Source: a candidate division WOR-3 bacterium
GTDB taxonomy: Bacteria; Hydrothermota; Hydrothermia; LBFQ01
DNA length: 64,000 bases
Direction of reading: 5' to 3'
NCBI GenBank assembly: GCA_039802605.1
Contig: JBDRWW010000001.1
Location: forward strand, 160,001 to 224,000
Shown here: positions 1 to 48,320 of the stretch, piece after piece
Layout: each line of letters begins with the position of its first letter
Position numbering within the stretch: the first letter of the stretch is position 1
The notes under the pieces: model-generated
Database searches by the model: none
Told to the model about the DNA's origin: nothing
What the model saw: only the letters and a program-made list of their open reading frames with translations
Position numbers and translations under genes: made by a program

Positions 1-1853
1 ACCGCCCTAACCTCTGCCTCCCCTATTTTCCTTTCAACAACCTCGGGTTCTAACTGACCCGAAAGTATTTCCTTTACATCGTCCAAAAGGGAATATATAA
101 CCTTGTGAATCCTTATGGGTACACCCCTATTTTCCGCGGTTTCCCTTGCGGCACTATCAACTTTTGTATTGAAACCGAGTATTATTCCGTTTGATGCTAT
201 GGCAAGTTCCACATCGGCTAAGGTTATATTTCCCACGGCGTAATGTATAACCTCGGGTTCAATCTCTTTAAACTTCATTTTTGATAACGCCTCAACTATG
301 GCTTCAACGGATCCCTGAGTATCCCCTTTTACTATTATTGGGAGTTTTAATTTTTCGCCGGCTTTTAACTTTTCCTGAATCATCCGCGCTATCTTAACAT
401 GTTGTTTTTGTTCAATTTGGTATTTTAATGTTTCCGAATACTCTTCCGCTTTTTCTTTCGCTTCGTTCAAATCCTCAACAACCACCAAAGTATCACCAGC
501 CCTTGGCACCTCCTCAAACCCAACGACCAAAACCGGCATAGATGGAGGGGCTTCTTCTACCTGATTTCCCTTATCGTTCAACATTAGCCTAACCCTACCA
601 TAAGTGGGACCACACCAAAATGCATCGCCAACCCTAAGGGTTCCGCTTCTTACTATAACCGTTCCAACAGGCCCTAAGCCCTTATCTATCTTAGACTCTA
701 TTACCGTAGCCTTTGCCCTACCGCTATAAGGCGCTTTTAGCCCCAACTCCTCGGCTTTTACTATGATGGCATCCAAAAGGTCGTCTATACCTATACCCTT
801 CTTTGCGGAAATTTCAACAACTATTGTATCCCCTCCGTATTCTTCCGGAACCAAATTATACCTCATAAGTTCGTTTTTTACCCTTTGCGGATCGGCTGTT
901 GGTAGGTCTATTTTGTTTATCGCAACTATTATGGGAACCCCGGCGGTCCTGGCATGGTTTATCGCCTCAACGGTTTGGGGCATAACGCCGTCATCGGCGG
1001 CAACCACAAGGACAACTATATCCGTAACCTGCGCACCCCTTGCCCGCAAAGTTGTAAAGGCCTCATGGCCAGGGGTATCTATAAATGTAATGGTATAATC
1101 CCCATGCCTAACCTGATACGCCCCGATGTGCTGGGTAATCCCGCCAGCCTCCTGCTGGGCAACATTTGTATTCCTTATAGTATCAAGTAGGGTGGTTTTC
1201 CCGTGGTCTACATGACCCATAACGGTTACGATAGGCGGCCTGGGTCTAACATCTCCCCCATCCTCAGGTGTTTCTTCAACAACTTCTTCGGCTGTTTCCG
1301 ATAGTTCCACTTCAATACCGAATTCAGAAGCCAAACCTATGATGGTTTCAACATCCAAAACCTGGTTGATGGTTATAAGTATCCCATTTTCAAAAGCTTT
1401 CTGTATAACCTCTTCTGGGGTTTTACCCAAGGCCTCGGCAAATTCTTTAACAGTCATAGACCCGGTAATTGTTATCTTTTCTACGGTTGATGTAAGTTTT
1501 GTTTCCTTCTTTTTGGGTTTCGTTATACTCTTTGATACCTTTTTCACCACTTTGGGTTCCCTATCCTCAAATTTTTCCTCCCTATCCCTTCTATCCCTTT
1601 TAACTTTACGGGAAGGTTTCGGAGGGGCCTGGTATATTTCCTTCTTTACTTTTAATTCCTGCCCTATACTCTCCATATGCTTGCTTAATTCCCTACGGAC
1701 TACATCCTCCATATCCTTGTTCATCTTGTGGGAATCGCTGCGAACATGTTTGTACCCGTTGTTTCTAAGGATGTTTATAATTATCTTTGGATCCACACCT
1801 ATCTCCTTGGCAAACTCCTTAATCGGTACAGGTCCTTTTTTAGGTTTAGACAT
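1..1853 (-). CDS. infB: Translation initiation factor IF-2 (3' end runs off the window)
   Basis: Not in the ORF track. Manual translation from ATG 1853 gives [19 protein letters not shown]...[20 protein letters not shown]...[12 protein letters not shown]...[10 protein letters not shown]...AINKID. Overlaps the nusA stop. Confidence 0.98.
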
Positions 1854-3312
1854 GTTCCTCCCCCTTTTCCTTTAAAGCGTCTTCTATGATTTCCAAAATC
1901 CTTATTGTTGTTGCCTCGTCTGTGCCCAACAACCTTTGCATATAGGCCAGAGGTATCAATCTCTTGAAATATACAAGTGTGGCCTCTTTTAGTTTTTCAT
2001 ATATTTCCGAGGCAAGTTTGTCTTTAAGTTCATATAAGGTAACTCCCATTTCCGGAGGTGTGAATTCACTTATGTGTAAAGCGTTTATCTTTTTACCCAC
2101 AAGCCTTGAAGCGAGTTTTATGTTTATGCCGTCCTTACCCTTTGCCTTCAAAACCTCTTCATCATCCTCGTAATACACATTTATTTCCTCTTTAAGTTCG
2201 CCATCAACCCTTTCCTTTTTCTCGTATGCCGCCACCGCCCCCTTTGCGGGCTGAAGGGAAAGTATGGCAAACCTAACAATATCGCTGTCGTAAGGTATAA
2301 CATCTATTATTTCTTCTTTGGGCATTTTACTCTTTATGGCATAAAGTCTCGTTCCCCTTGGACCGAGGATCGTGGTAACCGGGGAAACGAAGGGATCCCT
2401 TGACTTAACGGCTATCTTTGTCATAACGCCCGCCTCCCTTGCTATGGAAACTATTTGTACCGTACCATCCTGAAGTTCGGGTATTGACCTTTCAAGCAAC
2501 GCTTGAACAAACCTCGGATCCGAACGGGAGAGGAGGAGGGGATACGAAGCCCTATCCTCCACATTCAATACCACCGCTTCTATATCCTGCCCAGGCTTAT
2601 AAACTTCGCTTTCGACCATACCCTCCTTTGGTATCCTTCCCTCTACACCCAATTCGGGAATACCGACCAAAACACCCATCTTTTTATCAACCTTTTGTAC
2701 TTTTCCCGTTATAATCTTGTTAATGTATGCCTGCAACCTTGGGAGTTTTGCCTTTAAGATCTCGTTCTTTATCCTGTAAAGGAATTTTTCCTTTAACCTT
2801 TGGACATCGTAATGCGAAAACTTTTCCGGTGTAATAATCTCCTCGTAGCCGATTTCTTTAACTTTGAACAAATCTTGGTTCTGCTCCACAACTTCCCCAC
2901 CCCTTCCATAAACCTTTTCTATCTTTGCGATTTTCCCACTTACATTAAACTTTATTTCAAGATCTTTTCCGTTATCGGTTATAATTCCAATAACATCGCC
3001 GAATTTAACCTCCTCATCTACCTCTTTTTTGGGCTTGAATATACCCTTTATTGGGGCTTTTATATAGAAAACTTCACCTTTTTCAGCCGATATATCCTCA
3101 TTAACAAACTCTACCCTAACCAATATTTTACCCCTACTTAAATCCACCTCGGGTTTTATGCTTCTTGGCTTTGGGTGCGAATATTTATACTTTTCGGAAA
3201 AAACATCCTTTAAAGCGCTTACGAGTGCCTTTTCAACCGTCTCGGGATCAATTTTATGCTCATGGGCAAACGCTTCAAGTGCAAGCCTTAGTTCATCTAC
3301 CCTTATGGCCAT
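1846..3312 (-). CDS. nusA: Transcription factor NusA, divergent, with an inserted domain
   Basis: S1 domain ending LLLSRSDPRFV, IPELQDG, IAREAG, two KH GxxG loops (GPRG, GKDG); lies between rimP and infB; SD GGAGGT upstream. Confidence 0.93.
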   Translation of the reverse strand: MAIRVDELRLALEAFAHEHKIDPETVEKALVSALKDVFSEKYKYSHPKPRSIKPEVDLSRGKILVRVEFVNEDISAEKGEVFYIKAPIKGIFKPKKEVDEEVKFGDVIGIITDNGKDLEIKFNVSGKIAKIEKVYGRGGEVVEQNQDLFKVKEIGYEEIITPEKFSHYDVQRLKEKFLYRIKNEILKAKLPRLQAYINKIITGKVQKVDKKMGVLVGIPELGVEGRIPKEGMVESEVYKPGQDIEAVVLNVEDRASYPLLLSRSDPRFVQALLERSIPELQDGTVQIVSIAREAGVMTKIAVKSRDPFVSPVTTILGPRGTRLYAIKSKMPKEEIIDVIPYDSDIVRFAILSLQPAKGAVAAYEKKERVDGELKEEINVYYEDDEEVLKAKGKDGINIKLASRLVGKKINALHISEFTPPEMGVTLYELKDKLASEIYEKLKEATLVYFKRLIPLAYMQRLLGTDEATTIRILEIIEDALKEKGEEHV

Positions 3313-3315
3313 TTT

Positions 3316-3765
3316 TTACCTCCTTTCGTTATCCAATTGTAAAACCGCAACTTCTTCAAGGTTATAAAAATTGTCATCAACACCTATTGTTTTTTCTTCC
3401 TCGTTAAAGTAATTTAAAACCCCCTTTACGGTCTCACCGGTTTTTAGCACGACCTTTACCCTTCTCCTTAAAGCCCAATTTATTTCCCTCGGTTTAACGA
3501 GTTTTCTATTTATACCGGGTGATGATACCTCCAATGTGTATGGAACATCTATAAAATCCTCGGCATCGAGCATATCGGAAAAAGCCCTTGAAAACCTCTC
3601 GCAATCCTTTATAGTTATGCCATTTTCCTTGTCTATATAAACCCTCAAATAACCCCTCTTACCGCCAAAACTCCACTCTGTATCCACCAAATAATATCCC
3701 AACCTCTTTGCCAACTTCTCAGCCAACTCCTCGGCCCTTTTTTGTATGTACTCCTCCCACCTCAT
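3316..3765 (-). CDS. rimP: Ribosome maturation factor RimP
   Basis: LRVYIDKENGITIKDCERFSR and YTLEVSSPGINRKL motifs; start moved to ATG 3765 (MRWEEY). Confidence 0.95.
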   Translation of the reverse strand: MRWEEYIQKRAEELAEKLAKRLGYYLVDTEWSFGGKRGYLRVYIDKENGITIKDCERFSRAFSDMLDAEDFIDVPYTLEVSSPGINRKLVKPREINWALRRRVKVVLKTGETVKGVLNYFNEEEKTIGVDDNFYNLEEVAVLQLDNERR

Positions 3766-3796
3766 AATCGTAAGTTGGTATTTTACGGCTGAAATA

Positions 3797-4666
3797 TTAT
3801 TTCTTTGAAAGTAAATCGTCCAAGGCCAAATCAATCGTTGGATACTTAAATACGAAACCTTCATCTATTAGCCTTTTGGGTATAACCCTTTGCCCCTCCA
3901 ATATTAAGTAATCCGCCACCTCACCCATTACAATTTTCAAAGCAAATGGGGGGATATGGAAAATGAGGTGTCTTTTCATCTTTTTTGCCAAAATCCTTGA
4001 AAACCCCTCGTTTGTTATAGGATTTGGGGAAACAACATTGTATATACCGGTTTTTTCATTTAAAATGAGGTATTCAACAATACTACACAAATCTTCTATA
4101 TGTATCCAACTCATCCATTGTTTCCCATCCCCTATTATTCCACCGACAAAAAATTTAAACGGTAAAACCATAAGTTTAAATGCTTTTGCATCTTTTGAAA
4201 GAACTACACCAAACCTAGTTATAACCCTCTTTATTCCCAAATCCTCTATTTCCCTTGTTGAATCTTCCCAATTCCTAACAACTTGCGTTAAAAAGTCTTC
4301 CTTTAAAGGTTGAGATTCTTCGGTGAATTCCGTATTTCTATCCCTACCGTAAAAACCAACTGCGGATGCCTGAACAAAGAGTTTTAACCTTTTGCCGGAT
4401 TTTTTAATCTCATCAACCAAAACCCTACCGGTATTCACCCTTGATTCCAAAATATTACGCTTAACCCTTTCATTCCACCTTTTTGATATGTTTTCACCCG
4501 CAAGGTTAACGATAACATCCCCATCGCTTATGTGTTTGTGGAGTTCATCGTATGTTAAACCCTTACCTTTAAACCTTGAAACCAATATTACATCGTAATC
4601 TTTTGAAAGGTAAGCCTTTAAATGCCTACCGATAAGCCCACTGCCACCAGCTATAAAAATTTTCAT
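3797..4666 (-). CDS. TIGR01777/YfcH-like NAD-dependent epimerase
   Basis: GGSGLIG Rossmann motif, NLAGENI..RW, ASAVGFYG, GDGKQWMSWIHIED. Confidence 0.9.
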   Translation of the reverse strand: MKIFIAGGSGLIGRHLKAYLSKDYDVILVSRFKGKGLTYDELHKHISDGDVIVNLAGENISKRWNERVKRNILESRVNTGRVLVDEIKKSGKRLKLFVQASAVGFYGRDRNTEFTEESQPLKEDFLTQVVRNWEDSTREIEDLGIKRVITRFGVVLSKDAKAFKLMVLPFKFFVGGIIGDGKQWMSWIHIEDLCSIVEYLILNEKTGIYNVVSPNPITNEGFSRILAKKMKRHLIFHIPPFALKIVMGEVADYLILEGQRVIPKRLIDEGFVFKYPTIDLALDDLLSKK

Positions 4667-46996: not shown

Positions 46997-47464
46997 ATGA
47001 GGTGGATTGTCTTGGTAGTAGGTTTGTTAAGTCTTATAACCTGTTCAAAAAGGGAAGATAACAGCATTAAAGGTTTGAGCTTTAAAACCTTGGATGGTAA
47101 AATTTATAAATGGGAGGATTTGCAGGGTAAGGTTTTGATCGTTGATTTTTGGGCTACATGGTGTCAGCCTTGCAGGAAGTCCCTACCCGAGTTGGACGCA
47201 ATTTATAAGGAGTATAACGGTAAGGTTGTGGTTATAGGTTTTTCAAAGGATGATTCGGAAGAAGAAGTTAAAAACTTTTTGGAAAAGGAAATTAAAGTTT
47301 CCTATCCAATTGCTATGTCAAATCAAAAGCTGGAAAAAATGTTCGGTGGTATATTGGGTTTGCCCACAAGCTTTTTGGTTGATAAGGATGGTAAAGTTGT
47401 TAGGAGGTTCCTGGGATATGTCCCCAAGGAAGTTTTGGAAGAAAACATAAAAAGACTTTTATAA
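46997..47464 (+). CDS. TlpA-like thioredoxin lipoprotein
   Basis: Lipobox LITC; FWATWCQPC; GLPTSFLVD. Confidence 0.92.
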   Translation: MRWIVLVVGLLSLITCSKREDNSIKGLSFKTLDGKIYKWEDLQGKVLIVDFWATWCQPCRKSLPELDAIYKEYNGKVVVIGFSKDDSEEEVKNFLEKEIKVSYPIAMSNQKLEKMFGGILGLPTSFLVDKDGKVVRRFLGYVPKEVLEENIKRLL

Positions 47465-47492
47465 AGATTTCACCCTTATAATACCGCCCTCT

Positions 47493-48320
47493 ATGAAAGT
47501 TATCAAGTTTGGTAATATAATCATCTTTGTAAAGGATTTCCCGAGGACAATAAAAGGGCTAGCGGTATTTTTAACGGTCATTATTTCCATCTTATTCGGG
47601 GGTTTAACATTTTTTTATTTAAAGTTTCTGAAAAAGTTGTATTCTCAAAGGGTTTATACCAACCTGATTAAAGAAAATCAAGAGCTTAGGAAAACCCTGA
47701 GGGAACTTTCCAAAAAGTTGGATGATATGTATAATAGGCAAAGGGTACTGGCATCGGTATTGAATGTCCCCCTTTACGATATATCCTCCGATAACTTCGC
47801 AATAGGCGGTCAGATAAGGGATGTGGATATTGACAAAATTACCTCGTACGCAAAATTCCAAGAGGATGTATTAAACCAATTGGAAATAAAGGCAAAACTA
47901 ACAAAAGAGGAATTAAAGCGCATCCCGAGCATACCCCCTATAAAGGGGGTTTTCTCTTCGGGTTTTGGGATAAGAAAGGATCCGTTTACGGGTGGCATTG
48001 AATTCCACAAGGGCATTGATATATCCGCCCCCACGGGCACCCCTATAGTTGCCACAGCCGATGGGGTGGTTGAATATGCCGGTTGGAATTCCGAAGGTTA
48101 TGGGAACCAGGTGGTTATAGACCATGAAAACGGTATAAAAACACGCTACGCGCATATGTTTAAAGTCTTAGTTAAGGAAGGCCAAAGGGTTAAAAGGGGA
48201 CAGGTTATAGGGTTGGTTGGAAGCACCGGTAAATCCGTTGCCCCGCATGTGCATTACGAGGTTTATTTAAACGGGAACCCTGTAAATCCCACAAGGTATA
48301 TTCTAGTTGATTTGAGATGA
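47493..48320 (+). CDS. M23 metallopeptidase (intact motifs)
   Basis: HKGID, YGN, YAHM, PHVHYEV; N-terminal TM and coiled coil. Confidence 0.94.
   Translation: MKVIKFGNIIIFVKDFPRTIKGLAVFLTVIISILFGGLTFFYLKFLKKLYSQRVYTNLIKENQELRKTLRELSKKLDDMYNRQRVLASVLNVPLYDISSDNFAIGGQIRDVDIDKITSYAKFQEDVLNQLEIKAKLTKEELKRIPSIPPIKGVFSSGFGIRKDPFTGGIEFHKGIDISAPTGTPIVATADGVVEYAGWNSEGYGNQVVIDHENGIKTRYAHMFKVLVKEGQRVKRGQVIGLVGSTGKSVAPHVHYEVYLNGNPVNPTRYILVDLR

Follow-up and report, generated by a model that had tools for sequence, protein, structure and literature searches.

NusA is a universal and intensively studied factor of transcription elongation, pausing and termination, and its N-terminal domain anchors it on RNA polymerase. 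Both NusG and the polymerase have known cases of folded domains inserted in particular lineages. Here we describe a NusA that possesses such an addition, a biotinyl-carrier-like barrel-sandwich hybrid domain inserted into the polymerase-binding N-terminal domain, at the tip of its beta2-beta3 hairpin. The gene lies on a 64,000-nucleotide stretch of a candidate division WOR-3 bacterium (Hydrothermota; contig JBDRWW010000001.1, positions 160,001 to 224,000, assembly GCA_039802605.1), hereafter the window. The explanation that we prefer as a whole, with a probability of about 60%, is a domain of biotin carboxyl carrier protein (BCCP) type that was gained once, likely derives from the lineage's own accB, has been kept by selection, and is predicted to act as a substitute for a lost head of the N-terminal domain.

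Several described systems resemble this architecture in part. In Escherichia coli the flap-tip helix of the polymerase inserts between NusA helices a1, a2 and a4, the alpha2 C-terminal domain makes contact with the NusA head, formed by a3, b3, b4 and a portion of b2, and the N-terminal domain together with S1 forms a positive cradle over the RNA hairpin, as given in excerpts of PMC5842316. The NusG of Thermotoga maritima carries a domain, DII, of two subdomains, which is inserted in the N-terminal domain, binds polymerase subunits as well as nucleic acids, and is proposed to be a heat adaptation that makes the complex of factor and polymerase more stable at high temperature (excerpts of PMC5224480). 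DII, the unrelated extra domain of Aquifex NusG and the insert described here are all folded additions to the polymerase-binding N-terminal domain of an elongation factor in a hyperthermophile. DII belongs to a different factor, however, and the likeness is one of position and proposed role only; no NusG chain is found among the 50 structural matches listed for the insert by VIA-align 2. The sandwich-barrel hybrid motif (SBHM) insertions of the polymerase beta and beta' subunits (flap, SI3) share the broad fold class and are likewise lineage-specific additions to the transcription machinery, but their similarity to the insert is far weaker (Z 6.3-6.8 versus 12) and they sit in the polymerase, not in NusA. 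The biotinyl domain of BCCP/AccB (PF00364, single-hybrid-motif fold) is, like the insert, a flattened barrel of eight strands (root-mean-square deviation, rmsd, 1.2-2.5 A over 69-72 residues) with A-P-x-x-G, G-D-V and terminal L-F-K-V/I motifs, and the AccB of the lineage is 33-36% identical to the insert. Unlike BCCP, which stands at the end of a flexible linker, the insert is embedded in another domain, has Gly115 instead of the hairpin lysine and K-P-K-K instead of eight AccB residues, and in the window copy scores below the Pfam cut-off.

Domains, fold and gene order place the protein in the NusA family, albeit as a divergent member with sub-cut-off scores. KH_5 (PF13184, 2.2e-13) and S1 (PF00575, 3.4e-8) exceed their Pfam cut-offs, and sequences of solved NusA structures align from residue ~160 onward (E 3e-25). 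The family model TIGR01953 matches at 2.8e-53 with 181.1 bits, below its curated cut-off of 253.4, and NusA_N reaches 19.2 bits against a cut-off of 23.8, so the statement in an earlier note on this stretch, that the rest of NusA is divergent as well, holds. A full-length model of the protein, computed from 64 sequences, has a predicted local distance difference test (pLDDT) of 91 and a predicted template-modelling score (pTM) of 0.72 and matches solved NusA in Foldseek at E 3.4e-27; it contains the N-terminal alpha/beta domain followed by the long helix, and the overall NusA fold. Two of the NusA relatives carry the source name "hypothetical protein". The genes rimP, nusA and infB follow each other on the minus strand in the list of open reading frames (ORFs), the usual order for NusA genes. 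Plus-strand frames across the range of the insert are short antisense frames of a K/E-rich gene, and the coding strand is settled by the homology and selection results given below.

The extra segment is genuinely inserted into the N-terminal domain of NusA and is not a chance feature. A search of 5.8 billion clustered proteins gave 363 matches among 8,000 scored candidates, of which the 18 nearest were aligned with the query. Seven of these 19 proteins (P0001-P0007, 479-488 amino acids) possess the segment; the other twelve (P0008-P0019, 364-420 amino acids) show a clean gap of about 80 columns in its place and are 51-68% identical elsewhere. Of 41 genomes searched, 39 gave a NusA match. The match is uninterrupted in four of the five species of the genus (the window's own genome G000, and G001, G002 and G004; G001 is cut by a contig end). 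In the fifth, G003, and in all seven genomes of the sister genus it falls into two pieces (1-72 and 158-488) with the insert missing. None of the 28 aligned relatives outside these four species (G003, seven of the sister genus, 20 of the order and class) has the insert. These counts give the distribution among relatives that the earlier note had proposed to examine. A word-indexed region search with residues 70-160 found only the two nearest relatives, too few words being shared.

Wider scans used two peptide patterns with confirmation by tblastn, and a different domain at the same NusA site would escape them. They recovered three further genome contigs with the insert among 185,579 species genomes, two of them labelled Candidatus Caldipriscus sp. 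(congeners, from hot springs), and seven contigs in the JGI metagenome collection. Near-identical DNA occurs in 20 public runs from 11 studies, mostly labelled as hot-spring metagenomes; one abstract in the literature on the lineage describes hyperthermophilic communities at 82-84 C. Contigs of two DNA runs span the whole insert with no differences within it and no joints. Contigs from two RNA libraries cross both insert junctions but not the middle (2915-3024); since such libraries may contain DNA, we do not count them as proof of transcription. An assembly chimera or a wrongly joined frame has a negligible probability: the same in-frame insert is present in four species genomes, three further genome contigs and seven metagenome contigs, substitution ratios in it are low, and the independent DNA contigs that bridge it exclude an artefact of assembly.

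The isolated 84-residue segment, modelled with AlphaFold2 (AF2) from the alignment of seven sequences and no templates, forms eight strands (pLDDT 90.5, pTM 0.76). Its best Foldseek match in the PDB is E. coli BCCP (4hr7_G, E 5.1e-4, TM 0.72/0.78, rmsd 1.7 A), and Arabidopsis BCCP1, 1bdo and Pyrococcus BCCP are also among the top matches. VIA-align 2, which is independent of Foldseek and covers 48,161 representative chains, likewise puts BCCPs at the top of the matches listed: 2d5d_A with Z 12.4 (rmsd 1.2 A, 69 of 70 residues) and 1bdo with Z 12.0. Lipoyl domains reach Z 8.8-10.3, barrel-sandwich domains of membrane-fusion proteins and aspartoacylases Z 8-11, the beta-flap SBHM of RNA polymerase Z 6.6-6.8 and the SI3 SBHM Z 6.3. 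The barrel with its eight strands reappears in the full-length model and again matches BCCP domains. Because BCCPs score near Z 12 against 6.3-6.8 for SBHMs, the insert is assigned to the biotin-carrier type rather than to the polymerase SBHM type; according to the models, residues ~74-157 are an independently folding eight-stranded barrel-sandwich hybrid domain of biotin carboxyl carrier type. The earlier note had read a biotinyl/lipoyl-like barrel inserted in the N-terminal domain of NusA from the letters alone, and the gap alignment, the AF2 model, both structure searches, the AccB profile match and hhalign agree with it; in the Foldseek comparison that it had suggested, biotinyl domains of BCCPs stand on top, i.e. 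matches to the biotinyl-lipoyl/SBHM fold are present. The likeness to polymerase SBHMs that it mentioned is real at the weaker level just given; for the Thermotoga NusG insertion, to which it gave the same fold, the excerpts of PMC5224480 mention no such fold. Its range, 2848-3081 for residues 78-155 (with a quoted peptide of residues 80-151), is slightly narrower than the domain itself (74-157, 2842-3093 on the minus strand).

The sequence relation to AccB was first seen in the genome comparison, where the whole NusA also matched a second locus, accB, in two congeners (E 1-2e-4, query 83-184). In single BLASTP comparisons of insert and AccB, identity is 36% for G004 (E 1e-8) and 33% for the window's own genome (1e-7). 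A profile of the seven inserts, run against the 11,161 stop-to-stop frames of at least 50 amino acids of the own genome, has AccB as best non-self match (E 1.1e-5), followed by a biotinyl protein of 124 amino acids (4.1e-4), with the next match at 0.068. The alignment of the inserts and that of 30 AccB biotinyl domains match in hhalign with a probability of 97.3% over 72 columns, and PF00364 (Biotin_lipoyl) matches four of four inserts at E <= 1, the best being a clade-2 insert (2e-6). The relation is detectable only with a profile, because tblastn with a single insert sequence finds nothing but the insert itself. A profile of four inserts has no match below E 0.1 among sequences of solved structures, and solved BCCPs (E. 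coli, Pyrococcus, plants) are not among the 15 sequences listed at E <= 10. An ESM Atlas feature search gave "lipoyl-binding domain" clusters with a best score of 0.76, below the meaningful level. The protein P0122 (477 amino acids, tandem repeats), returned for the insert by phmmer, was judged a chance match.

Elsewhere in the window, a frame of 289 amino acids at 47451-48317 on the plus strand (G000:C1:207451-208317) scores E 0.14 with PF00364 and E 0.068 with the insert profile and is probably another protein with a hybrid-barrel segment.

Other sources of a barrel-sandwich domain were considered, namely an SBHM insertion of RNA polymerase, a membrane-fusion protein or the C-terminal domain of an aspartoacylase. 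All of these give structural matches at the Z scores listed above, the weak matches to solved-structure sequences are led by a protein of the aspartoacylase family (E 0.11), and the pattern scans caught three non-NusA loci that match insert residues 4-40. Nevertheless, biotinyl domains head both structure searches, only biotinyl proteins are significant in the own proteome, and scores drop with the distance from the lineage's own AccB, which makes any of these sources highly improbable. One of the non-NusA frames, of 311 amino acids in a Lachnoclostridium (L028:2305-3240), has a G-E-E-V-K-F-G-D-V stretch in common with the insert and is 41% identical over residues 4-40. The matching stretch belongs to the C-terminal part of the frame, and structural matches suggest that such a barrel occurs in aspartoacylase-type enzymes.

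For the phylogeny of NusA, the columns of the insert and of an extension in KH2 were removed, the truncated P0019 was left out and the sister genus served as outgroup. The seven insert-bearing NusAs form one clade with support 99/97, whose sister group consists of the insert-less P0008 and P0009. A single gain is the most economical reading of one clade, and the sequence data fit one such event within the genus to which the window's organism belongs. On AccB biotinyl domains the insert profile scores 26.7-29.4 bits in the genus, 24.1-29.6 in the family and 21.2-25.8 in the order, and 10.6-22.6 in other families of the class; given this fall with AccB distance, transfer from a distant donor is held less likely. 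In a tree of biotinyl domains (82 columns) the inserts group together as one clade (99/99), at the end of a very long branch (6.1), and join a node with the AccBs of their own family, outside the clade of order and class AccBs (81/84). To judge from the sequences, the insert is probably a duplicate of the C-terminal biotinyl domain encoded by the lineage's own accB. This origin is likely rather than proven, because the attachment is a polytomy and the branch very long.

The hairpin that carries the cofactor in biotinyl and lipoyl proteins reads (A/V)-M-K-M or D-K-A. In the AccB alignments E-A-M-K-I-M stands opposite T-D-N-G-K-D, so that the absence of an EAMKM/DKA motif from the hairpin, remarked on in the earlier note, is confirmed, as is its numbering of Lys116 by the translation. 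The biotin-lysine falls on Gly115, which is invariant. Conservation was read from 14 insert sequences, 13 of them distinct. Residue 116 is lysine in ten and arginine in four of these, within the pattern D-[N/D/L/V/F]-G-[K/R]-[D/S]. Between strands 2 and 3 the insert also has a gap of eight residues opposite Y-R-A-P-A-P-G-A of AccB, which we take to be the BCCP "thumb", and a K-P-K-K loop occupies its place. To judge by these alignments, the insert has lost what a cofactor carrier needs, and it is best called biotinyl-carrier-like, not a carrier, because it fails the test of the defining lysine despite fold and homology.

A regulatory domain with Lys116 biotinylated or lipoylated, linking metabolism to transcription, corresponds to the modifiable lysine of the earlier note. 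The fold is indeed that of biotinyl and lipoyl carriers, the genome encodes a normal AccB with the E-A-M-K-I-M motif, and a lysine follows one residue past the hairpin turn in ten of 14 sequences; but modification is most unlikely, because the lysine position of AccB aligns with the invariant glycine and residue 116 is arginine in the other four, and the flanking residues differ from the carrier motifs. The exchange of lysine and arginine conserves charge and therefore favours an electrostatic role at position 116 over a modification site. Very improbable, too, is a decoy, in which the lysine-less domain would bind AccC or the biotin ligase and couple fatty-acid synthesis to NusA, parallel to the BADC proteins of plants. 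AccB biotinyl domains of the same lineage are the nearest relatives in sequence and structure, as a decoy would have it, yet both the biotin-lysine and the eight-residue segment between strands 2 and 3 are gone, and the branch from AccB is very long.

At the site of the insert, ordinary NusAs carry the head of the N-terminal domain. The canonical E. coli head (helix a3, b3, b4) has the same chain position, between b2 and the long connecting helix, but its fold is unrelated to that of the insert, and with 30-49 residues versus 85-92 the insert is about twice as large. Relatives in the class retain in the alignment a canonical segment K-x-V-V-E..D-P..E-I-S-L-E-E-A-K...G-E..I after strand b2. In the whole family of the window's organism this head is missing and a short hairpin is found instead, with the insert at the hairpin tip. 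The segment measures 30-49 residues in 89 of 121 NusAs and less than 20 in 18; in seven it has 51-76 residues of low complexity, mostly acidic, and in another seven 85-92 residues with the barrel. The site is thus a soft spot for length change, and only this clade among the 121 NusAs possesses a recognisable folded domain there. The insert had been thought to replace the usual short loop; since ordinary NusAs have a head segment of 30-49 residues there and the whole family had lost the canonical head, it stands in place of a head and not of a loop. The helices expected to form the flap-tip pocket are present in the full-length model.

The alpha C-terminal domain, which contacts this head in E. 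coli, was also compared. In other families of the class, PF03118 reaches 53-86 bits and all 22 of 22 pass its cut-off; the order's sister family reaches 22-31 bits. In the family of the window's organism it scores 15.7-19.9 bits, with none of 12 genomes over the cut-off and one without a match; the own rpoA (L061:1021-2034) lies outside the window. The family with the weak PF03118 is the one whose NusA has lost the head. When NusA residues 1-200 and the own alpha C-terminal domain were predicted as a complex, the score was 0.22 (mark 0.32).

The insert is kept under purifying selection. Ratios of nonsynonymous to synonymous substitution rates (dN/dS, Nei-Gojobori) between G000 and G002 are 0.049 for the insert (84 codons, dS 0.79) and 0.062 for the rest of nusA, and between G004 and G001 0.109 and 0.171, respectively. 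Between the two insert clades dN is 0.437 for the insert versus 0.216 for the rest, and identity 42-46% versus ~65%. These values bear on the possibility of a passenger, i.e. a duplicated BCCP domain tolerated in a permissive hairpin, with no partner of its own and giving at most bulk or stability to a truncated N-terminal domain. Such a passenger would suit a site that is a hot spot of length change across 121 NusAs, the existence of close relatives that manage without the domain, its faster divergence between clades and its overall neutral charge (15 K+R, 16 D+E, isoelectric point 5.6). It is the main rival reading and nevertheless unlikely: the dN/dS values of 0.05-0.11 match the low ones in the remainder of this essential gene, residue 116 is limited to K or R, and charged residues of surface type (K85, K93, K95, K96, E100, E101, E119, K121, E132 and E140 in the alignment of seven proteins) are invariant between two clades with such low identity.

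We prefer the reading in which the barrel acts as a substitute head of the NusA N-terminal domain. In BCCP the two termini of the chain share one end of the barrel, and the opposite end carries the lysine hairpin together with the thumb. If that geometry holds here, the K-P-K-K loop and K/R116 would form a basic tip that points away from NusA. The substitute head would add a contact with the elongation complex, candidate targets being upstream DNA, the hairpin of the nascent RNA and a surface of the polymerase close to the flap, and the added contact might stabilise NusA binding at ~80 C, in line with the proposal for DII of Thermotoga NusG. That the insert gives such an extra hold, a predicted contact suggested by analogy, is a tentative proposal with somewhat less than even odds.

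Several observations weigh against the preferred reading. Purifying selection would also be expected for a passenger that has to stay folded in an essential protein, and between clades the rate of change of the insert is about double that of the remaining protein. Since the domain as a whole is not basic, a contact with nucleic acid would have to be made by one loop alone, and the distal position of the basic tip is taken from the structure of BCCP. As to the origin, the inserts attach to the AccB tree in a polytomy, by a branch of 6.1. The window's own insert scores 12.3-12.7 bits on PF00364, under the cut-off of 22.1; tblastn of a single insert against the own genome finds only itself at E < 0.4; and phmmer against 1.84 billion representatives returns one NusA relative and P0122, with no BCCP at E 0.001.

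The NusG of the organism, encoded outside the window (L099:1360-2394; G000:C6:63070-63951), seems to be enlarged as well. The 172-position model TIGR00922 spans 294 residues of it, so that about 120 residues would be inserted in its N-terminal domain. No Pfam family matches this extra region, with a weak UBA-like match at 0.013; PF02357 was missed by the six-frame genome search at E <= 0.001 and scores 25.3 bits on the NusG ORF. To judge from these matches, both general elongation factors of the organism may carry extra domains.

The coordinates of nusA, its parts and its neighbours are compiled in Table 1. The hairpin extension of KH2 is confined to the seven insert-bearing NusAs in the alignment of 19 proteins; it may be a change linked to the insert, or one that arose on the same branch by coincidence, and a contact of the extension with the insert inside NusA was considered. 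The C-terminal 73 residues are common to the whole family, and MAFFT sets them opposite helix-hairpin-helix-like C-terminal regions of two distant NusAs. The longest frame of rimP overlaps an upstream frame of 289 amino acids (3797-4666) by 68 bases (3797-3864); the RimP_N match does not begin until residue 48, which makes a later ATG the probable start.

Table 1. Features of the rimP-nusA-infB locus in the window; residues are those of NusA, positions those of the window.
Feature	Positions	Strand	Basis
infB (IF2), downstream of nusA, continuing past the window edge	3..1853	minus	named from reading the ORF translation
nusA, single open frame, 488 amino acids and stop	1846..3312	minus	KH_5, S1, TIGR01953; full-length model against solved NusA
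Acidic helical C-terminal region, residues 416-488, lineage-specific	1849..2067	minus	model helices 427-482; isoelectric point 4.8; without Pfam family
S1, KH1 and KH2 RNA-binding domains, residues 198-415	2068..2721	minus	Pfam S1 198-257, KH_5 294-357; alignment to solved NusA
KH2 beta-hairpin extension, eight residues 369-376	2185..2208	minus	alignment; model strands 359-369, 372-381
Return strand of the N-terminal domain and long connecting helix, residues 158-197	2722..2841	minus	model strand 147-160 passes from insert into domain; helix 167-194
Inserted biotinyl-carrier-like barrel-sandwich hybrid domain, residues 74-157, ~84 amino acids, eight strands	2842..3093	minus	gap in 12 of 19 nearest proteins; AF2; BCCP structural matches; AccB profile match
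Hairpin tip D-N-G-K, residues 113-116	2965..2976	minus	equivalent to the A-M-K-M biotinylation hairpin of BCCP
Motif G-I-F-K-P-K-K, residues 90-96	3025..3045	minus	invariant in 14 of 14 insert sequences; sits where AccB has eight extra residues
First part of the N-terminal domain, residues 1-73	3094..3312	minus	helices 5-18, 23-41; strands 49-57, 62-70; model and profile alignment to solved NusA N-terminal domains
rimP, upstream in the rimP-nusA-infB operon	3316..3864	minus	RimP_N at 3.8e-25; coordinates of the longest ORF

The insert-bearing NusA is a real and previously undescribed architecture, for which a function can be proposed; a full-text literature search, judged by titles and the beginnings of abstracts of the papers listed, gave no description of a folded insertion in the N-terminal domain of NusA. 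A broader view, which we regard as doubtful, would have the interface of NusA and polymerase rewired by whole domains: the head was lost and the alpha C-terminal domain diverged beyond recognition by Pfam, and then in one clade a new head would have come from a duplicated, lysine-less copy of its own biotin carrier domain, whose predicted basic tip (K-P-K-K loop and K/R116) would grip upstream DNA, the hairpin of the nascent RNA or a surface of the polymerase and so set pausing and termination at ~80 C. The reach of the finding is limited to a small, uncultured clade, in which a metabolic carrier domain lost its cofactor site and was taken into the transcription machinery, and for which insert-less relatives in the same genus are natural controls. 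If the new contact is true, it would show how interfaces of factor and polymerase get rebuilt in hyperthermophiles; if there is none, the insert would be a clear case of an essential protein that tolerates an inserted domain.

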